Positions 6,160 to 64,000 are shown, numbered from the stretch's first letter. The stretch: DNA of 64,000 nt from Candidatus Bathyarchaeia archaeon (GCA_050013255.1 JBEKFP010000001.1:800001-864000); one strand, 5' to 3'. Numbers and translations are program-made. The notes: generated from the sequence alone by a model not told the origin.

Positions 6160-6414
6160 TTATCTTTTCTCGAAGCGATAGGTTGTGACTGGCAGCTGGT
6201 CAACTGAACCATGCCGTTTCCCGGCTGTGGACCCGTAGAGCAACAGGAGCGCCCCTAGGAGTATTAGTGGAATCGCGAACAGGAGGTTCGGGTAGAGTAC
6301 AACATCCCGTGTCGGATCCTGCAACTCAACCATAAGCGGCATGGGAGCTACAGCAAGCGCCACCACAAGTGCAAGGAAACCAAGCAACATTCCGATCTTA
6401 TTCACGTTGCCCAC
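6160..6414 (-). CDS. Small membrane protein, two predicted TM helices
   Basis: Two hydrophobic stretches; co-oriented with purH. Confidence 0.55.
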   Translation of the reverse strand: MGNVNKIGMLLGFLALVVALAVAPMPLMVELQDPTRDVVLYPNLLFAIPLILLGALLLLYGSTAGKRHGSVDQLPVTTYRFEKR

Positions 6415-6434
6415 CCGTCGGTTTACTCATCCGT

Positions 6435-6884
6435 TCACCAAGCGTACCCGTACAACGCAACTAGTTCCGCAACCAAGCTTTCAGAAACTATCGCCTTGAT
6501 AGGTCTTTGCTCCTTCGTGGACAAGTTTTCAGCCATAACCCTTGACAATTGCGTTTCAGGCGAACCGTACATCGAAGGCTCAAGGGTAGATTGCAAAGCC
6601 TCCAACTGAACCTTCTGAGTAGGGTAGAGCATTTTCATTTCATAATCGTACCCCGTCAGCTCATCCTTGAAAACCGCACGGCTGCTCTCCGCGCCAGCCC
6701 CTTCAACAATCACATAACGGACCAGAAAGATTCGCTGGGGTGAATTGGCTGGATTACGGTCGGCGATGAGAAGCGGCTCCACTCCCCGCTCGTCCACGAA
6801 CAAGCGCTTGTGGAAGCTCTCGGAAATGCGGTAGACCAACGGCTCCATGTAGATTAACCCCTTCTGTAAGCGGAGATTTTTCAT
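6435..6884 (-). CDS. Hypothetical protein
   Basis: 149-aa ORF with ATG start and normal composition. Confidence 0.6.
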   Translation of the reverse strand: MKNLRLQKGLIYMEPLVYRISESFHKRLFVDERGVEPLLIADRNPANSPQRIFLVRYVIVEGAGAESSRAVFKDELTGYDYEMKMLYPTQKVQLEALQSTLEPSMYGSPETQLSRVMAENLSTKEQRPIKAIVSESLVAELVALYGYAW

Positions 6885-7270
6885 TGGCTAGTTGACGGCG
6901 ATAAAATATAACCATGAGATTGTAGGTTTGCTCGGCGAGATGCTTACCATTGATGTCACGGTTTGAGAAAGAAGGTCAACGCCTAATCTGTGACAAATGC
7001 GGTTTTGAACCAAACAGACAAGAAATCTTCGCCTTACACAAAAAGAACTGCCCTCGCATCTAAAACCCCTAGCTCAACCCTCAGGAAGATGTCAAAAGAC
7101 CGCTGTTTACGATAACCACCGCTACGTTCAATTATTCGTTAGAAACGCGTCCCACGCGATCGTGAACGCCTCCACACTCGATCCGCGTTTGCATTGATAA
7201 TGGACGAGGCGTCTGAACGATTCGTTCCTTTTCCTTTTATTCGATTTTCCATGCAACGCTGCTTCTAGAG

Positions 7271-54011: not shown

Positions 54012-54023
54012 TATGCGAACGAG

Positions 54024-55281
54024 GGCACTGTTAACTTGTCGGCCTCATTGCTTTCAGCGACCTCTCATGCCTAAAAGAGGATGAAAGTTTAGGCTAAGTT
54101 ATGCGGGCTGTCAAGACAGTTCAACAACACTACAAACTCAACCCTGAGATTCTACGAATGCTTGACGAGTTCCGCCAGATGATGAACACCTGCACACGGA
54201 TCGGTTTGGCTGAGAATGTTACGAGCCTCAAGGCTTTGTCCCTGAAAGCATACAGGCAACTCGCAACCTACGACGCGATGAGCTACTACAAGTTATGCGC
54301 CATCAGCAGTGCGACCGGCATCCTGCGAAATTATCGGAGGACCGCTCGACATGGAGAGAATCCAACAACCCCTTATGTTCGGCGTTTGAGGTTGACCACA
54401 TGCTACGGATTCAAAATTAAGGATGGCTGCTTGCTGCTCCCGTATCATCCCAGGAAAGCAATCGGAATCCCTCTAACACCCCATGTTCAAGCAACCATTC
54501 GAAAGCACCCGGTTCGTTCGGTCACGTTGACCAAGGATAAGTTATCGCTGACATATGCGAAGCAGGTCGCGGAGGTCAAGCCGAATGGCTTCATCGGCAT
54601 CGATAGGAACCTAAACAATGTCACGTTGGCCGGCACGGACGGTTCGATCATGAAACATGACCTCTCCGACGCGACGCGGGTAAAGGCTACTTACCGTCAG
54701 GTTCGCTCCCGTATGAGGAGGAACGATGTACGCATCCGCCGCGAAATCACGGGCAAGTATGGCTGGAAGCAACAGGAGAAGGTGAATCGAATTCTCCATC
54801 AAGCATCCAAAATGATCGTGCAACAAGCCAAGCAGGGGGGCTTCGGCATCGTGATGGAGCAGCTCACGGGCCTTCGGAAGCTGTATCAACGTGGAAACGG
54901 CCAAGGAGGATGGTATCGCGGCCGGATGAACTCTTGGTCGTATGCGGAGTTACAACGTCAAATCGAGTATAAAGCCCGCTGGGAAGGTTTACCGGTTATC
55001 TATGTTCATCCGCATGGGACAACAGCGAAGTGTTCGATATGTGGGTCTCGCATGGCGAGAATACCCGAAGAGAACCGAACGCTGAAATGTCCGTCGTGCC
55101 GGGTGAGCGTAGACCGCGACGTAAATGCCGCCAGAAACATTCTGGAGAGAGGCGTGAGGTTCGCGCCAATCGCGCTTCCAGTTGAAGCGATGGTACAGGA
55201 ACCCTCCAGCAAGGTAATCCTGAAAGTCGATGGAAGCGAGTTAACGAGTTGAAGCCCATGAGCCAACAAGTTAACAGAACC
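54024..55281 (+). mobile_element. 1258-bp non-autonomous element with IS6-like TIRs and an 8-bp TSD, carrying only tnpB
   Basis: Left end GGCACTGTTAACTTGTCGGC versus reverse-complemented right end GGTTCTGTTAACTTGTTGGC (17/20); flanks CGAACGAG (54016-54023) and CGAACAAG (55282-55289). Confidence 0.8.
54101..55252 (+). CDS. tnpB: TnpB/Cas12f-like RNA-guided endonuclease, catalytic residues intact
   Basis: RuvC-I GIDRN, RuvC-II VMEQL, Zn finger CSIC...CPSC, RuvC-III DRDVNAARNI. Confidence 0.95.
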   Translation: MRAVKTVQQHYKLNPEILRMLDEFRQMMNTCTRIGLAENVTSLKALSLKAYRQLATYDAMSYYKLCAISSATGILRNYRRTARHGENPTTPYVRRLRLTTCYGFKIKDGCLLLPYHPRKAIGIPLTPHVQATIRKHPVRSVTLTKDKLSLTYAKQVAEVKPNGFIGIDRNLNNVTLAGTDGSIMKHDLSDATRVKATYRQVRSRMRRNDVRIRREITGKYGWKQQEKVNRILHQASKMIVQQAKQGGFGIVMEQLTGLRKLYQRGNGQGGWYRGRMNSWSYAELQRQIEYKARWEGLPVIYVHPHGTTAKCSICGSRMARIPEENRTLKCPSCRVSVDRDVNAARNILERGVRFAPIALPVEAMVQEPSSKVILKVDGSELTS

Positions 55282-55289
55282 CGAACAAG

Positions 55290-55327: not shown

Positions 55328-55465
55328 GGGTCCGTAGCTCAGCCAGGTAGAGCGGCGGATTGGGCATGTGTTTGCCAGGCCGAAGCTCTTAACAGCCTGA
55401 GGGAGACCCGAAGGTCGAGAACCACAACAGTGGCCGACAAGGTTCAAATCCCTCCGGACCCGCCA
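55328..55465 (+). tRNA. tRNA-Lys(CUU) with three introns (30/31, 37/38, 51/52)
   Basis: Exons 55328-55358, 55385-55391, 55406-55419 and 55441-55465 splice to GGGTCCGTAGCTCAGCCAGGTAGAGCGGCGGGCTCTTAACCCGAAGGTCGAGGGTTCAAATCCCTCCGGACCCGCCA; each junction forms a BHB/BHL-like motif. Confidence 0.9.
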
Positions 55466-55498
55466 CTCCAACGGTTCCAGACCAGGGTCTGGCAAATA
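55457..55498 (+). repeat. att-like repeat copy 1 (tRNA 3' end plus palindromic arm)
   Basis: GACCCGCCACTCCAACGGTTCCAGACCAGGGTCTGGCAAATA. Confidence 0.85.
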
Positions 55499-55563
55499 TC
55501 GAAAAGGCAGCCTCTCAGACTAACGCCGTTTACATATGCAGTGTGCGTGCACCGCTATTAGTG

Positions 55564-55651
55564 GAGTTCAAATCTGAATGCCCGCACATTGTGTCCCCCA
55601 CAACTTCCAGAAAAGCTAGCAAGCTAAGAGTTCAATTTGTGATGCCCGCAC
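55564..55651 (+). repeat. Two 24-bp direct repeats resembling decayed tRNA 3' ends
   Basis: GAGTTCAAATCTGAATGCCCGCAC (55564) versus GAGTTCAATTTGTGATGCCCGCAC (55628), 19/24. Confidence 0.65.
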
Positions 55652-55716
55652 GGCTATACCACACACACAAAGTGTGACTATTACGGCCCTGTCTCGGTTT
55701 CAGGTGACTCACAACT

Positions 55717-57309
55717 TCAGAATATCTTGAAAAGGCCTCCAAGATCCCCATGGTTGTCCAAGTACTGGAACAGAGCTGCTACTCGAGGGATGATCAGAAC
55801 CTCGATTATTGTGGATACACCTGCCACGTATAGAACCAGCGAGTTCATGTTTTGGATGACCTCCTCCAAGCCGTGCCACTCGGATGCCCACTCAGACGAT
55901 CCGTATCCGGCCAAGATTACAAGACCTACGGTTCCCATCGCCAGTATCAAGTAGAACCACAAGACCTCATCTTTGATTTTCTCGGCGAGGATCTTGAGAT
56001 AACTATTGAGTTTCAGATGTGTTCCGGTTCGCAATACTAAGAGCCAATACGCCGCAAGGAATAGTATTGAGGGCAACAAGTAGGAGAACGCTGACGAAGC
56101 GGCCTCTTTGCCGAGGAAAATCGAAGCCAACTCAGGTGCTGTGAAATACACCGCGAACATGCCTCCTCGCAACAATGCAAAGTAAGTTACGAACGTTAGA
56201 ACCGACTGCCTTTTCACAAACGCCCTGTATCTTGTAGGGTTCTCGCGCCAATCCTCGAGAATTTGAGGGATTTTGACCATGCAGATTACGTAGGTTATCG
56301 CGATTGTGCAAGCAACTGGGAACATGGCCACTTTTGGATCGATCCTGATTGGGCTGGTCATCGCGATCAGGAGGAAGAATCCCGGCAATAGTAGCCAGAC
56401 GTCCGGAAGCATCGCAAAGAAGACCATTTCGACGAAACGCTCCGTGTATTCCTTCTCGAGTATTCTGGCCATGCTGAGCGCAAGGACGATTACGAAAATA
56501 CCGTTAACCAGTATGAAGCTGACGCCGAAAAGCGCGATGTATCCAAACATTGTCCCGTTCACACCGGTAATCAGCTCTACCGGAACAGATTGGGCGACTA
56601 TCCATGCCCCTACAAGAGCAAGTGTGGCCCGCATTTCGAGAATGGAAACGTGTTTCTTGGAAAGCACCGATAGAAGATGAGCCAGGAAAATCAAGGGCAT
56701 TAGATGATAGAGAATCGAGAATGACATCACCATCTGTGGCGGCGTGCCCAGTTGGTATTCATTAGGCCCGGAATTCACGGTAAGTCTAGGGAATGATAGC
56801 CACAAGATCCCTGTCGTGATTGGTTTCCAAGTTTCTTTGATGAACAACGATTCTCCAGGCATCAGCGTAGCGTTAATGCCAGTGTAGCTCGAGGAAGGTA
56901 GTGGTGATGGGAAACGGCTCCCAACCGCAGGTCCTAGATACGTCAGCGGCTCTCCGCCGACGGTTATCAGCAGGGACGCTTCTGGGTTGTCTACCCCAGC
57001 CCCTGATGGGTTCAATGCCATATGAACGATCGTGGGTGCGGATCCCCGATTGGTCACATTAACGCGGAATGATACGGGTGTTCCGAGTTCAATGATAACG
57101 ACGGGTGAATAATCGCAGTAGTACTCCACTTTCGCTCCTTGAGACAGGTCGTGAAGACGCACCGTGGTTCCGGTATTAGCGTCCGCACGGACCTCAATGG
57201 TTACTGTGAGAAATGCGGCAATCACGATCGCTATCACTACGAAGGTCAGCCATTGATGGCGTCTATCTACGGACGTGGCGGCAGGCGAGGTTGTCACTGT
57301 TTGAGCCAT
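55717..57309 (-). CDS. Polytopic membrane protein with an N-terminal extracellular Ig-like domain
   Basis: N-terminal TM, beta-rich segment (FRVNVTNRG, LMPGES), then about nine TM segments. Confidence 0.8.
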   Translation of the reverse strand: MAQTVTTSPAATSVDRRHQWLTFVVIAIVIAAFLTVTIEVRADANTGTTVRLHDLSQGAKVEYYCDYSPVVIIELGTPVSFRVNVTNRGSAPTIVHMALNPSGAGVDNPEASLLITVGGEPLTYLGPAVGSRFPSPLPSSSYTGINATLMPGESLFIKETWKPITTGILWLSFPRLTVNSGPNEYQLGTPPQMVMSFSILYHLMPLIFLAHLLSVLSKKHVSILEMRATLALVGAWIVAQSVPVELITGVNGTMFGYIALFGVSFILVNGIFVIVLALSMARILEKEYTERFVEMVFFAMLPDVWLLLPGFFLLIAMTSPIRIDPKVAMFPVACTIAITYVICMVKIPQILEDWRENPTRYRAFVKRQSVLTFVTYFALLRGGMFAVYFTAPELASIFLGKEAASSAFSYLLPSILFLAAYWLLVLRTGTHLKLNSYLKILAEKIKDEVLWFYLILAMGTVGLVILAGYGSSEWASEWHGLEEVIQNMNSLVLYVAGVSTIIEVLIIPRVAALFQYLDNHGDLGGLFKIF

Positions 57310-57395
57310 CCCAGGTGCTCAGGATTGTTGCACAATCTGTAGGCTTGCTCCATAGACCTCTGGCTCCCGGTGTTGCTGCGTTACGCGCTCCTTAT

Positions 57396-57536
57396 TCAGA
57401 GAACCAGTAAAGCCAGGATCCTTTGCAGTTTTGCTACGCGCGATTTTTTGTAGCTGCCCATTGTTAACAGGAGGTCTAGCTCATCAAACCGTGATTCCGA
57501 ATCAACTTGCCTGGATCTCAACTCCTTCACGTCCAT
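57396..57536 (-). CDS. 46-aa microprotein (not in the ORF track)
   Basis: MDVKELRSRQVDSESRFDELDLLLTMGSYKKSRVAKLQRILALLVL; AGGAGGT just upstream. Confidence 0.45.
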   Translation of the reverse strand: MDVKELRSRQVDSESRFDELDLLLTMGSYKKSRVAKLQRILALLVL

Positions 57537-57763
57537 CTACCTCCTGTTAGCAAGGTTCCGCCTTGGCTAAGAAGGGGCTCTGAGACAAGAAGCCGATTAC
57601 AAAACAGTCTCAGATTCTATGAGAGGCAACGATCTCACTGAATCATCTGACTGACTTGGCAGAGATTCAACCGCGAGTCGCAATGAAAGAAGTTATTTAC
57701 GAAAAAGACAGACTCCTATAACATAGACGGGCTTCACATAATGACGGGCCGGTAGCATACTGC

Positions 57764-58600
57764 TTGACCAATCATACTTCGCTGACCATGGAAGACGAAG
57801 TTGAGCTGTACCGTTGGCTTTGCAAATACTTCAAGTTGACAGAGATTCAGTGCCTCACAATCATGTTAGTTTTAGCGAAATCAAGCAGGAATGTGTATCA
57901 GGTCCACCAAGACTTGAAGGAAGCTATGGAACTAGGAGATAAAGGAGCTGGGGCGTTGATCCTCAAACTTGGCGGCAAAATACCAAAAGAGCCCCCAGTC
58001 TATGCTTCGGTACACAACTGGCTCACTGGTCCTTTTGTTCGCTACGGTTTTGTCTCCATTGAGAAGCAGGTCTCGAAGAAGGAAGTAGCGATCGGCTACC
58101 GTGACATAGTCCAACCCTCCAACGGGATTTCTTCGCTTGTTCAATCATACGAAAGAAGTCACAAGTTGCAGGAAGGGGCGGACACACTTTGCCATGCGAT
58201 TGTGACGGACAAAGAAATACCGCGAGTTTTCTTAGCCCAAAATCCGAGCCACCCCATTGAATTTAAGAAAACGCTGTATCAGATGCCCATGAGGTATTGG
58301 GCCAAGGGAGACGGGAAACTGGTGTACCAATTCGAACAACAAGCTGCTGAAGCAGCTGTTGAAGAGGTGAGTGAGGGGCGCATAAAGTGGAGCGCTTACC
58401 ACGAAATGGCAGGCAGCCCGCTGAAGCACATTTGGGCAAACGGAAGAATTACTGTTCATAGAGTATGGGCTGGGCTCGTTAAAGAAAAGAATCGATTGAA
58501 ACCGCACTCACCTTTCGCGGGACAGTGGTTTGACATGGATCAGGTGAAGACGAACCCGAAAATAGACCCGGAAGCAAGAGATTGGTTGTCCCGAATTTGA
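57764..58600 (+). CDS. Putative TrmB-like wHTH fused to a degenerate NUDIX domain
   Basis: N-terminus FKLTEIQCLTIMLVLAKSSRNVYQVHQDL; C-terminus CHAIVTD..RVFLAQ..YQMP..AAEAAVEEVSEG..QWFDMDQV. Confidence 0.55.
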   Translation: MTNHTSLTMEDEVELYRWLCKYFKLTEIQCLTIMLVLAKSSRNVYQVHQDLKEAMELGDKGAGALILKLGGKIPKEPPVYASVHNWLTGPFVRYGFVSIEKQVSKKEVAIGYRDIVQPSNGISSLVQSYERSHKLQEGADTLCHAIVTDKEIPRVFLAQNPSHPIEFKKTLYQMPMRYWAKGDGKLVYQFEQQAAEAAVEEVSEGRIKWSAYHEMAGSPLKHIWANGRITVHRVWAGLVKEKNRLKPHSPFAGQWFDMDQVKTNPKIDPEARDWLSRI

Positions 58601-59412
58601 AATCACTAAACTCGGCGACATGGGTGTGGAACAACGGCAAATATCAACCGTACAGATACAGAAGAAAAGCGATGAGAATTCGTAGGATCAAGTTTGTCGT
58701 ACTTGATGGGGACGGAGTCATCTACGACTTACCCATAAAGCAGGAAGATAGTCCGAAGGTTGCAGCAAGCACTTGGAATGTCTTGTTCAGCAGGCTCGGA
58801 ATCTACGAGGAGCATGAACGTCTCAAAAGGAAATTCATAGCGGGAGAGTTCAAGTCATACGTCGAATGGACAAACGCCGCCTGCAAAGTGCTCAAAGATT
58901 TCGGTCTCAAGAAGAAGATTTTCGAAGACGTCATGGAAACTCGTCAGATTGCGGCCGGAGTTTCAGAAACAGTGAGTGAACTCCGCAAACACGGCATCAT
59001 TGTCGCTACAATAAGCGGTAGTTTCGAAGGTCTGTCTCAACGAGCCAAGAGTACTCTTCCACTGGACGCATATGCCGGACACTGCAGGCTCATATTTGAT
59101 CGCAAGGGTTCACTGAGTGATTGGAGATTAAGAAGGTGTGACTACGAGGACAAAGTGTCCGTCATGCGCAGAATGGGCAGGAAATTCGGAGTCGGAGTGG
59201 ATGAATGCTCATTCGTCGGACATGAGGTGAATGATATTCCCGCACTCAAAGCAAGTGGCCTAGGGATAGCGCTGAACGCCCACAAAGAGAAGGTGAGAAG
59301 AGCAGCGGATATTTCTGTCAAAGGAGACGTGACAGCCATCCTAAAGCTGATTCTAGTAGCGCAGGCCCCTGAACTTGAACCTGTAACTGCGCCACTAGAA
59401 CTGAGTCTGTAA
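58582..59412 (+). CDS. HAD-superfamily phosphatase (SerB-like; start may be ATG 58672)
   Basis: Motif I LDGDGV, II ISGS, III DK, IV VGHEVNDI, GIAL. Confidence 0.85.
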   Translation: MVVPNLKSLNSATWVWNNGKYQPYRYRRKAMRIRRIKFVVLDGDGVIYDLPIKQEDSPKVAASTWNVLFSRLGIYEEHERLKRKFIAGEFKSYVEWTNAACKVLKDFGLKKKIFEDVMETRQIAAGVSETVSELRKHGIIVATISGSFEGLSQRAKSTLPLDAYAGHCRLIFDRKGSLSDWRLRRCDYEDKVSVMRRMGRKFGVGVDECSFVGHEVNDIPALKASGLGIALNAHKEKVRRAADISVKGDVTAILKLILVAQAPELEPVTAPLELSL

Positions 59413-59542
59413 CTGTTCTCGAAGTGTGCTTGTTTTTGGTTCGGGGAACTACTCATGATCTATTGCGTACCCGAAGCGTTCAACACGACCGCAACTGGAA
59501 AGTTCTAAATGCTCTCTCGGATAAACGGACAGACTGTCCGCG

Positions 59543-59584
59543 GGTCCGCCGCACTATCGGTTCCAGACCAGGGTCTGGCAATTT
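59543..59584 (+). repeat. att-like repeat copy 2
   Basis: Ungapped match to copy 1, including 24 identical nt CGGTTCCAGACCAGGGTCTGGCAA. Confidence 0.85.
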
Positions 59585-59720
59585 CCAAAAAATCGTATGG
59601 TAGAAGATCAATGACAACAGTTCGCGCGCAGGCGCGCGACTACAACTCAGATTTCGTCGTTCGCACTACCGTAACCCACCAGGGCGACTTGAAAAGAACC
59701 TTTGACTCCTCGGCGTGAAG

Positions 59721-61862
59721 TTACACTTGGTCCACAACTTTTATGCGGCCTCTAGCCTGGCCAAGCAACTCACGGGCAAGCCGCTCTAGAACCACATCTT
59801 GTTTCCATGGATATCTCTCCACATGGACGAGAGCTCCCTGCCTGGTTGTCTGGAGAATACAAACGGCGTTGTCGCTTTTCATCGAATATTTCGCTGCCTT
59901 AGTGTATTCCTTCAGAAGCTTATGGGACCTGGAATAGCAAAGAACCGAGCCAGTTTCAAGTCTGGTTCGAAATGCTAGATCCTTGTGCTTCTTCGTATAG
60001 GACCAAAGCTTGTCAACCGATTTAGCGAAGATGGCTCGTTCTCCATCAGTCTGTTCTAGCAATATCGCAATTCCATCTATGAACCCTGTGGCGCCATTCT
60101 TCTCAAGAATTTCTACTAGTGACTGCATCGTCTTGGGCATTTTCTGTCTTGGTTTAGGAGTCGGCGTCGAGCGTACGCCGAGGACATGATGATAATAGTC
60201 TTGGATTGGACCTGTAACGTCTGGAAAAATTATGACATTGTTACTGGCTCTGATTCGTTCGGTAAGGAGTTGGTTATCTAAAAACAGACCGAACCAATCT
60301 AATTCCTCAGTGGCAAATGCTTCTAGATCTTGTACTGCTATCCTTCGTTCAAGATAACTTACGAACTCCCCCACCCCGTTGACCAATTCAACTATCACTT
60401 GTAAGTCAAGGTCGAAGACTGACCACGCAGCCTCGTTTCCGCTTACGATTCCGGCCCTAGATAGCCAAGACATGTTTGTTGTGAAGGCGGTCAACGAGTC
60501 TAACGTCACGGAGATAAGATACATGCGTATTATGTTCTTACTTCTGAGACGCACATCGCCCTTAGGACTCTCGAAGTAGACTTCTTCCGAAGATCGAATA
60601 TACCGCGCCGCTCGCGCGTTTTGTTTTTGAGCGTCATCAACCAATCGTTTCAACTGGTCAATTGCACTTCGTGATCCTCTTCGAGCTGCCGTGGACATCG
60701 AGCCAGCTTTCGCTTCAATCAGAAACGCGGTTCTATCCACCAACACAAGCCCGTCAAGTTCGAAGTCTCGAACACCTTGCCCGTCATCATAAGAGTAATG
60801 CAGGTTCACCCACGCGTCGGCGTGGCGCGTAGTTGATTTGATCAGGGCTACTGCGTGGTTTTCTAAGTAATCCGATCTGTGACTTTCGTAGCGCCTCCAT
60901 AGCCCATCATTCTGTTCTAGTATGTTTTCAATAGCTGCTCTGAACCTAAAAATCGATTGTCCTACCAAGTGTACTAACCATAATTCATCAGATAACTTGA
61001 GAAAAGGAGCACGATCAAGGGCGTCGTAAACGCTCGGCCATCCTGCTCCTATCTCCTCCTGTCCAAATTCGGGTGTAAAGAGGTCTAGGAATTTTCTAAT
61101 GACGCGTTGATCGATTTCTGTAACCTTCGTGAGCTCTTCACAAGTCACCAAGAATATTCTGTGCGCCACCGGTCTCATGGTCTTTATCAGGTAACGATTA
61201 ACCTCCTCGCTCTGCTTGCGAAGTTCGCCAGGACCGGGTGTCTTGTGCAAATCAGGACGTTCTGACTTAGATTCTCGGTATATGATTGATTCACACTTCA
61301 AAATCCTACTATTCACCACCTTATCCAGGCCATCAAAAATCCCAAGAGCGTCGGTAATATCGAAACCGATGAGCTCCTGCAGTTCTTTGCTAAACGGATC
61401 AAAGAGTGCGTGCAATTGTGCAGTCATATGATGTCGAAAAGCTTCGCCACGCATGAGAAGGTTCAATATTCTAGTGTGTACGAGGATGTCTTCAGGGTTA
61501 TCACCCAATCGCCCCTTGCCTCTAACCCTAGCATGAGAATAATCCTCAACTAACTTCACAGCTTTCATCGAAAGAGCAAATACTTTTTCGAGATCGTCTT
61601 CTGAAGTCACCTCATCAATTGCGAGTGGATTCGGTGCCGAATCGAAATTACACAGGTACAACCAGGTGACATATTCAGCGTAAATCGGACTAATGTCCTG
61701 CAACTCAACTTCTGGGCTCGTTAGGAATATTCTCATCGCAATGTTCGAAAGAGTCGAAGCGATTGGAAGTTTGCGCACCAGCTCACGGAGTTCTTGAATT
61801 GCTTCCGAAATTTCCTGCTCTAGCACTGCTAAGTCTTTGCGTTCTGCGCCTGATCTCTCCAA
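59721..61862 (-). CDS. Large protein with a NERD/PD-(D/E)xK nuclease-like domain
   Basis: YLENHAV...ELDGLVLVDRTAFLIEAKAG...AQKQNARA. Confidence 0.7.
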   Translation of the reverse strand: MERSGAERKDLAVLEQEISEAIQELRELVRKLPIASTLSNIAMRIFLTSPEVELQDISPIYAEYVTWLYLCNFDSAPNPLAIDEVTSEDDLEKVFALSMKAVKLVEDYSHARVRGKGRLGDNPEDILVHTRILNLLMRGEAFRHHMTAQLHALFDPFSKELQELIGFDITDALGIFDGLDKVVNSRILKCESIIYRESKSERPDLHKTPGPGELRKQSEEVNRYLIKTMRPVAHRIFLVTCEELTKVTEIDQRVIRKFLDLFTPEFGQEEIGAGWPSVYDALDRAPFLKLSDELWLVHLVGQSIFRFRAAIENILEQNDGLWRRYESHRSDYLENHAVALIKSTTRHADAWVNLHYSYDDGQGVRDFELDGLVLVDRTAFLIEAKAGSMSTAARRGSRSAIDQLKRLVDDAQKQNARAARYIRSSEEVYFESPKGDVRLRSKNIIRMYLISVTLDSLTAFTTNMSWLSRAGIVSGNEAAWSVFDLDLQVIVELVNGVGEFVSYLERRIAVQDLEAFATEELDWFGLFLDNQLLTERIRASNNVIIFPDVTGPIQDYYHHVLGVRSTPTPKPRQKMPKTMQSLVEILEKNGATGFIDGIAILLEQTDGERAIFAKSVDKLWSYTKKHKDLAFRTRLETGSVLCYSRSHKLLKEYTKAAKYSMKSDNAVCILQTTRQGALVHVERYPWKQDVVLERLARELLGQARGRIKVVDQV

Positions 61863-61892
61863 TTCACAGCCTCTCCCTCAAGCTATCGCAAT

Positions 61893-62009
61893 TCAAGCTT
61901 TGATTCGAACTGAACCTGGGTTCAGGCTTGTATAGTAAGAGGTGCCCCAGAGGCCGTCCTCTTCGTCATATGTAACGTCCCTTGGACCTAGGAGTTTTCC
62001 CGCCGACAT
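61893..62009 (-). CDS. 38-aa ORF duplicating the C-terminus of 62011-62613
   Basis: MSAGKLLGPRDVTYDEEDGLWGTSYYTSLNPGSVRIKA; 25/33 aa identical to its neighbour's C-terminus; ATG 1 nt after that neighbour's stop. Confidence 0.6.
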   Translation of the reverse strand: MSAGKLLGPRDVTYDEEDGLWGTSYYTSLNPGSVRIKA

Positions 62010-62010
62010 T

Positions 62011-62613
62011 TTATGCTTTTAGTCCAACGTGACCCGGGTTCAAACTTCGATAATAGGAGATTCCCCAAAGGTCATCCTCCTCACTATACGTGACATCACG
62101 TGGGCCTATGAGGTCTCGCTCAACACCATGAGGCAGCTGCACGACTATATCTTTGTTCATCCACTCACGAATGAAATCTCGCCGAATTCTCGACACGCCA
62201 TGGAAACCATCAAACGGTTTCACGTGAAAATCATTGTTCCATTCCAAGTCTGTCTTGATCGAATTAGTGAGAGAGAAAGCAAGCCGCATTTTGAAGTCAA
62301 GCGGAATGAACTGCCCTGAGAATGACCCTTCAGCGACTTTCACCTTGATGTGGCATGATGTCTTTGATCCCCTTAAGCGCAATTTACTGGGACGCAGATG
62401 AGTGGTTCCAGACTTCAATGTAATTTCGCGTATTCCTTCCATGTCGGTGAGGGAAACGAAGACTTCTACCTCTTCATTAGGAAGGACGAGGCCGCAGTTC
62501 GAGGTCATAAACGGGCATTCATTTAACCCGTCGAAAGTCTGGTCTTCTCTTTCGAATTGGTTCCACTCTTCAGGGTTCTTGCTGTTCTGGACAAGATACT
62601 CTAGACCCGCCAC
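62011..62613 (-). CDS. Hypothetical protein, probably 5'-truncated at att-like copy 3
   Basis: The GTG start lies inside the repeat; no SD. Confidence 0.6.
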   Translation of the reverse strand: MAGLEYLVQNSKNPEEWNQFEREDQTFDGLNECPFMTSNCGLVLPNEEVEVFVSLTDMEGIREITLKSGTTHLRPSKLRLRGSKTSCHIKVKVAEGSFSGQFIPLDFKMRLAFSLTNSIKTDLEWNNDFHVKPFDGFHGVSRIRRDFIREWMNKDIVVQLPHGVERDLIGPRDVTYSEEDDLWGISYYRSLNPGHVGLKA

Positions 62614-62645
62614 ACCAACGGTGCCATACCAGGATCCGGCAAATA
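62604..62645 (+). repeat. att-like repeat copy 3
   Basis: GACCCGCCACACCAACGGTGCCATACCAGGATCCGGCAAATA, 37/42 identical to copy 1. Confidence 0.85.
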
Positions 62646-63129
62646 CTGGAAAACGGTCTCGACTGAACTTGCCTCGATCGATTGAATCCTGCCCTTCTTA
62701 GGCGAACCATCTCGTCAACCGTGATGAATCCGGTCCCCTCTTGCTTATGCTGTATCGATCTCATTTCTCTCATGTCGAAGTCAGGCAAAAAGTCTTCAGA
62801 GGAGAACAGACGACTCAGGAGTCTGCAACTCATAGCACGCTTTGACTTCTATGATAAACGATAAACACGCAGGTTACGAAATTACCGAAGTCTTCTGGAG
62901 TTTACCGCTACTAACTGAACTTCTTGATCTCAACAAGCTTAACCGATATTGGTCTTCGAAGCATCACGGAAAGCCGGCCCCTTCGAATCTCTCTCGGGGT
63001 TATGGTTTCTGTATTGTTTCTCTATTGTGGTCTCTGGCTGACGCAATCATCCAATTCCCTCGAGTCCTAGACATCAAAGACGCTGAACTTCTCGTGAGGG
63101 CCTGGCAAGGCAATGTTCCCTTTCACCGC

Positions 63130-64000
63130 ATGCCGACCAAAACGCAGGCAGGTCAACTAGTTCGCAAGATCGTAGATCTGTACCGACCCTTGATGGGAGC
63201 AGATACTTTTGCTGATATTGAGCAAAATGCACCGATTCTATTGCAGGCACTAGTGAAGCCACTTTCTCAAATTTTCCTATCAAGTTTTGGGTTATCATCG
63301 GAGTTCAAGAAAAAGACAAGGCTGGATGTTCTCGAGGCACTCAAAGCCGGAGCCATCTTCAAACTCCTTTTCGAACTACAAAATCGCAAATCAATCAAGA
63401 TTGCCTATAATTACACTTATGATAAAGGCAAGCGATTTTTTGTTCAATCAACCGTTTTGCCCCTGACTGTCTCAAACCAGAGATTCTTTGACGGGTATAA
63501 GCTAGGAATAGTCTACCTTTGGGAATCGCTTCTCGAAGCGAATCAAGACTCAATTCGGAAGATCAAGAGATGCAGGACATGGGATCAACTAGAAACGCTC
63601 CGTAACGTCACTTCTACAACTATAACTCAACCATTTGCTGAACGAATCGGGCTGGAATCTCCCACGGACGAGATTGATTTCAAAAAGAGGCGTAAAATTC
63701 CAGATGAACTGATGACTCCACTTATTCGAAGTCAACACACAGTCCCATTACAACCCGCGTCGACTCAGGAAATTCTAGATGAAGCCTTTCTCTGGTATCC
63801 TCTTGTAATAGCAGGGACAGACGCCACCGCCATTTCTTCTGTGGGCTTCGCGACAGCGTTGCTCGGGACAGCAAAATTGAGACGTGGCCCGATACATGTA
63901 CTGAAATTCATTCACCGGCAGACAGAAGGCAACACGTTCAGCTTTGCTATCTTAATTCATGCGGCGAGCAATGTTGCGGACTACTCCTATTGGTGGGTTT
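63130..64000 (+). CDS. Hypothetical protein, partial (runs off the window end)
   Basis: Open frame MPTKTQAGQLVRKIVDLYRPLMGADTF...ADYSYWWV with no stop before 64000. Confidence 0.75.
   Translation, partial: MPTKTQAGQLVRKIVDLYRPLMGADTFADIEQNAPILLQALVKPLSQIFLSSFGLSSEFKKKTRLDVLEALKAGAIFKLLFELQNRKSIKIAYNYTYDKGKRFFVQSTVLPLTVSNQRFFDGYKLGIVYLWESLLEANQDSIRKIKRCRTWDQLETLRNVTSTTITQPFAERIGLESPTDEIDFKKRRKIPDELMTPLIRSQHTVPLQPASTQEILDEAFLWYPLVIAGTDATAISSVGFATALLGTAKLRRGPIHVLKFIHRQTEGNTFSFAILIHAASNVADYSYWWV

Follow-up and report, generated by a model that had tools for sequence, protein, structure and literature searches.

Integrase-less segments that are flanked by att sites and stacked at one site by site-specific recombination are known from the ICESt1 family of Streptococcus thermophilus, and in 2022 Ghaly and colleagues reportedly described integrons in archaeal metagenome-assembled genomes. 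For archaea, tandem integration at one site and loss of the integrase after integration have been described (PMC6563490, PMC8371274), and an intact tRNA gene together with a displaced tRNA fragment is the signature on which the mapping of tDNA islands by Islander is based (PMC4383910). Here, a 64,000-nucleotide stretch of DNA (the window) from a Candidatus Bathyarchaeia archaeon (GCA_050013255.1, JBEKFP010000001.1:800001-864000) was analysed, in which a repeated unit that starts within a tRNA-Lys(CTT) gene delimits three segments of accessory genes. The window corresponds to C1:800001-864000 of this archaeal genome (G000, 2.46 Mb in three contigs, C1 to C3), and coordinates given without a contig are window positions. 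The locus is an ordinary, apparently frozen genomic island of a peat Bathyarchaeia archaeon and not an active cassette system. It probably arose when at least three elements integrated one after another, by site-specific recombination, at the 3' end of the tRNA gene, with crossover in or near the sequence CCCGCCA; the integrases would have been lost later, and three remnants are left.

A repeat search returned a single family of direct repeats in the window, 54 nucleotides (nt) long, with three copies that lie 4086 and 3061 nt apart and are all intergenic (3/3; coordinates of all features in Table 1). The unit is composed of the 3' end of tRNA-Lys(CTT) and an arm with the inverted repeat CCAGAC-N4-GTCTGG. 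A preliminary description of this DNA had reported a 42-bp unit in direct orientation at 55457, 59543 and 62604; this shorter unit lies inside the 54-nt family at exactly these positions, and the reported identities were reproduced, with copy 1 (55457-55498) and copy 3 agreeing in 37 of 42 positions and copies 1 and 2 having an uninterrupted run of 24 nt (CGGTTCCAGACCAGGGTCTGGCAA) in common. With up to three mismatches allowed, two matches to the 23-nt arm were observed, whereas 100 shuffles of the window that preserved its dinucleotides yielded none. The inverted-repeat block of copy 2 equals that of copy 1 at 24 of 24 positions despite a diverged core (9/14) and a diverged tail, and in copy 3 the palindrome is lost. 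Scattering of the motif through the genome had been named beforehand as an observation that would speak against an association with the tRNA; genome-wide there are only four units, each beside a tRNA-derived core, two of them directly after tRNA genes and two after displaced tRNA 3' ends. The fourth unit, outside the window, directly follows a different intron-bearing tRNA (C1:1151491-1151613).

The tRNA gene itself was reported neither by ARAGORN with default settings nor by Rfam at gathering thresholds, both of which found no tRNA in the window. After removal of a 35-nt intron from the T-arm, ARAGORN folds a clean tRNA-Lys(CTT), which has a second intron of 27 nt at 31/32. Since the gene folds to 55328-55465, the unit opens with the final 9-14 nt of the tRNA, in agreement with the earlier proposal that it starts within tRNA-Lys. 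The gene is kept in all 23 genomes of the genus. At the other end, 4.8 kb past the end of the window, a displaced 3' end of tRNA-Lys without an arm (GGTTCAATTACCTCCGGACCCGCCA, 23 of 25 nt identical) is found on the same strand at C1:868748-868772. The intact tRNA and the displaced 3' fragment therefore delimit an island of 13.3 kb (C1:855466-868772), which the internal units split into segments E1 (4.1 kb), E2 (3.1 kb) and E3 (6.2 kb). The intact target tRNA at one end and the displaced copy in direct orientation at the other form the arrangement by which a tRNA-anchored island is recognized. Between the unit copies the segments are unrelated to one another and hold two to five genes each, on both strands, and the guanine-cytosine content is 49.2% in E1 and 47.3% in E2, with flanks at 51-52%. 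Extension of the search past position 64000, proposed earlier as a way to find more copies and an integrase, uncovered no further arm-bearing unit in the island but the displaced tRNA-Lys end, and no integrase was detected in E3.

How could such an array have arisen? Cores and P' arms are present at both copy 2 and copy 3, and CCCGCCA/CCGCC recurs exactly or nearly exactly at copy 2, at copy 3 and at the far attR, the sequence leftward of this block being different each time. Moreover, the sequence on the P side of the second junction resembles the 3' part of tRNA-Lys, with a local alignment score of 30 against a shuffle mean of 16 and only 2 of 1000 shuffles reaching 30. Briefly, each incoming circular element would bring along an attP site in which a tRNA-like P side is followed by a short block of identity, ending in CCCGCCA, and then by a P' arm. 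Through recombination at this block the newest element would come to lie between the tRNA and the older elements, and because a new element lands there, an internal junction would read P side of the newer element, core, P' arm of the older element. As the tRNA-proximal arm is intact and the most distal arm is decayed, E3 would have arrived first, followed by E2 and finally E1. The integrase genes would have been lost later, or the elements never had an integrase of their own and were integrated by one supplied from elsewhere. Successive stacking of related elements at one site, as put forward in the preliminary description, is the best explanation for the locus, the unit copies being att-like junctions at a tRNA hotspot.

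Comparison with relatives supports the outer boundaries of the island. Up to the tRNA, the genome of the closest species (G014) is collinear with G000 (amino-acid identity about 85-95%), and it has the same tRNA-Lys with a homologous left arm (87.6% identity over 307 nt including the tRNA), homology ending at 55587 (position 855587 of G000). Its right frame, about 130 nt long, is likewise homologous and terminates in the displaced tRNA fragment, in which both mismatches recur. The 23.6 kb between the frames of G014 hold unrelated genes, among them two for Cas1, one for an amidohydrolase and one for a peptidase A4. Breakpoints of synteny away from the repeats had been considered to be incompatible with stacking at the tRNA; the outer breakpoints relative to the sister species fall on the att frame. 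In G014 and five further genomes the content between the repeats varies, as is required of an island. Islands of 7.5-30 kb that are flanked by direct repeats of the 25 terminal nt of tRNA-Lys (0-2 mismatches) occur in G003 (30 kb, internal variants included), G004 (22.5 kb), G008 (7.5 kb), G011 (8.8 kb), G014 and G021 (1.7 + 10.5 kb), which together with G000 makes at least seven genomes of the genus, and internal repeat copies are found in G003 and G021, too. The sequences that follow tRNA-Lys across the genus belong to different arm families, and the genes of the other islands are mostly ordinary accessory genes (ABC ATPases, a PALP enzyme, isochorismatase, pirin, citrate transporter). Because tRNA-Lys 3' repeats delimit islands in genomes across the genus, tRNA-Lys(CTT) is a genus-wide hotspot for integration and gene capture.

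The arm is the most informative part of the unit. In copy 1 its conserved portion reaches about 70-125 nt past the tRNA, compared to 33 nt in the 42-nt unit, and this module is 79-88% identical to modules at C1:1151614, in G014 and in the metagenome contigs L094 and L090; about 70 nt are 80-90% conserved in all five contexts. The inverted repeat (CGGTTCCAGAC-N4-GTCTGGCAA) begins 8 nt past the tRNA end, and the conserved part comprises the palindrome with its outer pairs CGGT/AYCG and a stretch similar to CGTYTCTAAGAYTAACGTCAATTAC. The palindrome has an invariant stem and a variable loop (CAGG, CAAC, CACG, TAGT). RNAalifold found no covariation that would speak for an RNA structure (covariation term +1.32), and the arm is therefore read as a protein-binding DNA site rather than as RNA, the inverted repeat probably being bound by the recombinase or an accessory protein. 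The invariant stem and the complete identity of the block in copies 1 and 2 despite diverged cores and tails point to selection on the inverted repeat within the elements rather than to uniform decay. At tRNA-Lys the palindromic arm occurs in 2 of the 23 genomes of the genus (G000 and G014). It is also found after two other types of tRNA, at C1:1151613 in G000 and in G012 (locus L073), which amounts to three tRNA cores in all, and in L090 and L094 core and arm follow a non-tRNA P side. In L090 and in a 206-kb contig of the same sequence (L108), a 399-residue PF00589 integrase with a zinc ribbon is encoded 4.3 kb upstream of the arm, within an island of restriction-modification and other defence-type genes, and ordinary-looking genes follow the arm. 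This integrase belongs to a very large archaeal family and has no homologue in G000. The arm pattern had no match among the viral contigs of IMG/VR, and among the representative genomes of GTDB the contig of G014 is the only relevant match; five other GTDB matches, all from unrelated bacteria, are apparently due to chance. Since the arm is absent at the same tRNAs in most relatives, follows three tRNA cores and is found near integrase islands, it is best explained as a P' arm common to a family of integrative elements and not as a host tRNA trailer.

No recombinase had been visible at the locus in the preliminary description, and this holds: profile searches with Pfam, NCBIfam and PADLOC detected no recombinase domain in any open reading frame (ORF) of the island. 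More specifically, neither PF00589 nor the SSV-type PF16795 matches within the island, and no SSV-type integrase is present. Of the three PF00589 genes of the genome, located at C3:28.7 kb, C3:131.5 kb and C2:259 kb, two adjoin other tRNAs, and no tyrosine recombinase is encoded within 280 kb on the contig of the island. An integrase near a tRNA-Lys-like 3' end on contig 36 of G002 is located upstream of a different, complete tRNA and is irrelevant here. In G000, an integrase-bearing element next to a tRNA-Arg (C2:259232-260077) starts with the 8 nt CAACTAAT immediately after the CCA, and the same 8 nt directly follow tRNA-Lys in G016 (L057); these sequences hint that related elements may use several tRNAs ending in CCCGCCA.

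Several observations weigh against the proposed history of integration and integrase loss. Searches with PF00589 and PF16795 detected neither intact integrases nor fragments of them, whether in this island or in the 11 tRNA-Lys islands inspected across the genus, and for this reason we infer the tyrosine integrase as the maker of the array. The integrase of L090/L108 may be part of a newer element stacked on a resident arm, and hence no integrase can be named as the cognate one. The P side of copy 3 shows no significant resemblance to the tRNA in the shuffle test that was applied to copy 2, and the P sides of five junctions have no common motif beyond the core. The core of copy 2 is nearer to the end of another tRNA (C1:1151613, 12/14) than to tRNA-Lys (only 9/14) and needs the extra assumption that the element earlier used or evolved on a different tRNA; it would be explicable if the attP of E1 had evolved on the other tRNA type and used the shared CCCGCCA. 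Furthermore, several islands of the genus with exact 25-nt repeats hold only ordinary metabolic genes. Finally, to the right of the island the chromosomes of G000 and G014 cease to be orthologous 18-32 nt past the core. The right flank of G014 (C3:151892 onward, MarR and the following genes) is 94% identical to G000 C1:290648-288819, about 620 nt downstream of another tRNA (C1:291268-291457), and the right flank of G000 (C1:868773-868805) is 93% identical to contig 31 of G014 (C31:20796-23813), beside an ABC permease gene. The non-orthologous right flanks therefore leave at least one further rearrangement unexplained. In G013 and G016, synteny with the right flank consists of one small rhodanese gene and was not used to redraw the island boundary.

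Current mobility was assessed by exact look-ups of five proteins (the 713-aa, 189-aa and 200-aa island proteins, the DAO oxidoreductase of the right flank and the diphthine-synthase-type methylase of the left flank; aa, amino acids) in assembled contigs of ENA, JGI and Logan samples. Each look-up returned 21-23 contigs, all with the order E1-E2-E3, and in at least 20 independent assembled population contigs no gain, loss, shuffling, empty site or variant arrangement was found. Exchange of segments at the repeats, which the cassette reading of the preliminary description predicts, was thus not seen, and because of the invariant order the array looks fixed in the sampled population. Two contigs end on the borders of the core: L115 (ERZ27249969:k141_365785) exactly after the CCCGCCA of the far attR (C1:868772), and L117 (ERZ27249770:k141_50211), from a 99.2% identical strain in which the sequence left of an upstream TnpB element is different, exactly before the CCCGCCA of copy 3 (C1:862605). 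With 2 of about 9 contig ends on such borders, the chance expectation is on a rough estimate about 1e-4 to 1e-3, a hint that differences between strains may begin at the att core. Some population contigs (L129, L131, L132, L134) have shorter calls of island genes, a 619-aa gene of E3 being reduced to 505 aa, the 319-aa DUF5131 protein to 153 or 290 aa and the 530-aa protein to 506 aa; the shortened genes may reflect decay in some strains or assembly error.

These data also bear on other explanations for the locus. It could be imagined that the segments constitute an active set of integrase-less cassettes, excised and re-inserted at the hairpin unit by an integrase whose gene is located elsewhere, be it in the cell or in the community. 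Such a system would agree with the conservation of the inverted-repeat block of copy 2 (24/24) between diverged flanks, with the recurrence of integrase-less islands at tRNA-Lys across the genus, with the association of one arm with three different tRNA cores and with the two contigs ending exactly at CCCGCCA borders. It is nevertheless unlikely, as one order is found in all of the at least 20 population contigs, the inverted repeat of copy 3 is broken, the sole arm-proximal integrase seen (L090/L108) lacks a homologue in G000, and multi-gene segments of mixed orientation are accompanied neither by an attC-like structure nor by IntI. The integron-like or satellite-like active array of the preliminary description is not supported either, given the invariant order, the absence of IntI and of attC-type sites, the multi-gene segments of mixed orientation and the lack of a common P-side motif, and the search of the island ORFs with Pfam, NCBIfam and PADLOC found none of the replication, regulation or capsid-hijacking genes of phage satellites (PICI/P4-like) and no satellite integrase. 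Similarly, it is improbable that tRNA-Lys(CTT) serves as a standing gene-capture platform, on which small integrase-less segments with conserved palindromic arms are loaded and now and then swapped by an integrase that another element or another cell supplies in trans. If this were true, the same arm family would also serve other tRNAs ending in CCCGCCA, and the locus would be an archaeal equivalent, anchored on a tRNA, of cis-mobilisable elements or cassette arrays. Alternatively, the inverted repeat itself might be the site of a host recombinase, exploited as by Xer-dependent or pdif-like elements, with the tRNA-derived bases as mere neighbours. The inverted repeat, not the tRNA part, is indeed the most conserved portion of the unit, the outer pairs lengthen the palindrome to CGGT...AYCG, and no element-borne integrase is present. 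The far right boundary, however, has the tRNA fragment and no inverted repeat, in G000 as in G014, which argues against membership in the Xer-dependent (IMEX/pdif-like) family; other tRNA-Lys islands of the genus carry different arms without a palindrome, and the only four copies in the genome each lie beside a tRNA-derived core. The overlap region of tyrosine recombinases is normally longer than 4 nt, so the 4-nt spacer appears short for such a site, and altogether this explanation is very unlikely.

A non-mobile origin was considered as well. In G000 two different tRNAs are immediately followed by the unit, and after the second of them come ordinary metabolic genes without hallmarks of mobile elements, as would be expected if the arm were a tRNA trailer of the host, a processing or regulatory signal whose internal copies arose by segmental duplication or gene conversion. 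Yet the unit is missing at the same tRNAs in 21 of the 23 genomes of the genus and follows non-tRNA sequence in metagenomes, the arm lacks both covariation support (+1.32) and the T-run of a terminator, and because the segments between the copies are mutually unrelated they did not originate by segmental duplication, all of which makes a trailer highly improbable. More improbable still is a casposon-like origin, in which Cas1 acting as casposase made the tRNA-end duplications and inward-facing copies of a dispersed repeat are the terminal inverted repeats. Family 2 casposons do target tRNA 3' ends (PMC6563490, PMC6614799), stand-alone Cas1 genes are present in tRNA-Lys islands of G004, G014 and G017, and in G000 and G014 inverted copies of the dispersed repeat lie on either side of the cargo. 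Against this stand the lack of Cas1 among the island ORFs of G000 and of a PolB-sized gene beside Cas1 in the Cas1-bearing islands, the distance of 65-100 nt between the inverted repeats and the 25-nt direct repeats, which do not abut, and the length of the duplication, 25 nt instead of the expected 14-15 nt. Inspection of the ends of the G004 and G014 islands by eye revealed no casposon-style terminal inverted repeats or target duplications, the 44 copies of the dispersed repeat follow no pairing rule, and the internal units would be left unaccounted for.

With the reading of the locus as an array of integration remnants in mind, the cargo of the segments can be considered (Table 1). The 713-aa protein of E2 had no match in 40 relatives, which, like the low guanine-cytosine content of the island (47-49%), agrees with an origin by integration; its Atlas structure gives TM values of 0.80-0.85 to a mostly bacterial family, 15-25% of whose members have a NERD domain. 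This protein and the 622-aa protein of E3 look NERD- or PD-(D/E)xK-like. The DUF5131 protein of E3 matches the PADLOC candidates PDC-M41B/M30B (E 8e-82), and the ABC ATPase of E3 has AriA/NsnB-like PADLOC matches. The suggestion that the cargo serves defence is thus supported for part of it, which is defence-like, namely the DUF5131 protein, the AriA/NsnB-like ATPase and the nuclease-like proteins. A winged-helix and NUDIX label given earlier to the 278-aa protein found no support in Pfam, NCBIfam and PDB sequence searches, and phmmer detected nothing among PDB sequences for the 278-aa, 189-aa and 200-aa proteins.

Table 1. Features of the tRNA-Lys(CTT) island and related sites (window positions unless a contig or locus is given).
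Feature	Position	Strand	Remarks
tRNA-Lys(CTT), probable integration target (attB/attL)	55328..55465	+	at least two introns, encoded CCA; ARAGORN in intron mode and ARAGORN after removal of the T-arm intron
Unit copy 1 (putative attL)	55452..55505	+	last 14 nt of the tRNA and P' arm with CCAGAC-CAGG-GTCTGG
Full P' arm module of the presumed newest element	55466..55592	+	inverted repeat, conserved middle similar to CGTYTCTAAGAYTAACGTCAATTAC, dispersed-repeat copy at 55564-55587
Segment E1, 4.1 kb	55506..59537	mixed	three genes
Dispersed-repeat copies, left end of island	55564-55587, 55628-55651
530-aa multi-pass membrane protein (E1)	55717-57309	-
278-aa protein of unknown family (E1)	57764-58600	+
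HAD-IB phosphatase-like protein (E1)	58582-59412	+
P side of junction 2	59450..59537	+	degenerate tRNA-Lys 3' part including T-arm intron, then palindrome CGGACAGACTGTCCG
Unit copy 2 (junction E1/E2)	59538..59591	+	core CCGCGGGTCCGCCG
Segment E2, 3.1 kb	59592..62598		two genes
713-aa NERD-like protein (E2)	59721-61862	-
200-aa unknown protein (E2)	62011-62613	-
Unit copy 3 (junction E2/E3)	62599..62652	+	core GACCCGCCA intact; inverted repeat decayed to CCATAC-CAGG-ATCCGG
Segment E3, 6.2 kb in total	62653..64000 in the window, on to C1:868772		ends with attR arm and displaced tRNA-Lys 3' end
622-aa PD-(D/E)xK-like candidate (E3)	from 62842	+	weak lead
Further E3 genes, past the window			DUF5677 (309-aa ORF), 189-aa ORF, ABC ATPase, DUF5131, in that order
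Dispersed-repeat copy, right end of island	C1:868661-868684	-
Stand-alone Cas1 sites, G014	L048:9166-10398 and 6340-6978
Stand-alone Cas1 site, G004	L099:5594-6811
Stand-alone Cas1 site, G017	L104

The dispersed repeat mentioned above is treated as a separate feature that is not specific to the island. It is found genus-wide, has a length of about 50-60 nt with the form GTTCAAAT-N6-GCCCGCAC(CA...ACCCACACACAC) followed by CAnnnnACCCACACACAC, and resembles the T-arm and acceptor end of a tRNA, with a partner GTGCGYRC upstream. In G000 there are 44 copies, 40 of them intergenic, without orientation bias toward neighbouring genes; most genomes of the genus have at least 20 copies, often in tandem pairs about 60 nt apart. 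The copies cluster in the mosaic regions C1:1323-1356 kb and C2:279-287 kb, and in both G000 and G014 the variable cargo lies between copies that face inward. A role as promoter or terminator was rejected, as the repeat is intergenic yet has no orientation bias, and so was a role as end of a TnpB element, since the genome has only two tnpB genes of the subfamily concerned for 44 copies.

Some further observations were made around the islands. Upstream of the promoter of tRNA-Lys, a TnpB-only element of this subfamily (54016-55289) is inserted that is not present in the sister species G014, where about 60 nt lie between the upstream gene and tRNA-Lys. On the far side of the TnpB element the strain contig L117 has a cellulase/GH42-like gene, differing from G000. 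A perfect palindrome with a 7-bp stem (CGGACAG-A-CTGTCCG) is located at 59521-59535 between P side and core, at copy 2 only. Displaced tRNA-Lys fragments in G003, G004, G008 and G021 (L075-L078) are preceded by the common motif GGACYYGAACCYTWTT, which repeats the 3' strand of the acceptor (GGACCCG) and marks a second family of elements on tRNA-Lys, and in G003 the 28 nt following tRNA-Lys are repeated after the distal copy. The stand-alone Cas1 proteins in the tRNA-Lys islands of G004, G014 and G017 (about 405-410 aa, PF01867 with E ~1e-51) have neighbour genes in common, and a homologue in G000 (C1:1333670-1334639, 67-69% DNA identity) is located in a region rich in the dispersed repeat.

The locus documents the build-up of accessory and defence-type genes in Bathyarchaeia, a class studied mainly from metagenome-assembled genomes, and indicates how a single tRNA gene can be a hotspot throughout a genus, at which small captured segments remain after loss of the integrase. 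The palindromic arm and the presumed CCCGCCA crossover block provide a handle for finding the cognate integrase and for delimiting similar islands. No new mechanism is revealed; the accretion of integrase-less remnants at a tRNA hotspot is of a known kind, met here in Bathyarchaeia. Like integrons, the array consists of accessory segments separated by a repeated site that contains a palindrome. Unlike in integrons, IntI, attI and a common promoter are absent and the array is anchored on a tRNA gene; an attC site is an imperfect palindrome of about 55-140 nt with RYYYAAC...GTTRRRY and R''-L''/L'-R' boxes, whereas here a 6-bp stem closed by a 4-nt loop is combined with a tRNA-derived core, and integron cassettes are mostly single promoterless ORFs in one orientation, in contrast to the two to five genes on both strands found here. 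Membership among integrons, satellites and casposons fails in each case on the defining features that were tested. With the cis-mobilisable elements of the ICESt1 family the locus has integrase-less, att-flanked segments at one attachment site in common, and it differs from them in its archaeal host, in the absence of an integrase-bearing partner from the array and in showing no sign of current mobilisation. The tDNA islands of Islander have the same regenerated tRNA and displaced 3' fragment at their ends and also form arrays at one tDNA, but calls of this type need an integrase gene inside the island, and none is detectable here. Closest are the archaeal tRNA-integrated elements, namely those of thaumarchaea and the integrated plasmids and viruses of Thermococcales and Sulfolobus, including 'gene capture', which likewise target the tRNA 3' end, leave direct repeats of the tRNA end, build arrays by re-use of the site and leave captured genes behind upon integrase loss (PMC6563490, PMC8371274). 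Compared to these, the island described here resides in a Bathyarchaeia host, all three of its stacked units are remnants of 3-6 kb without an integrase, and its repeated block extends over a conserved palindromic P' arm, which elements at other tRNAs have as well.

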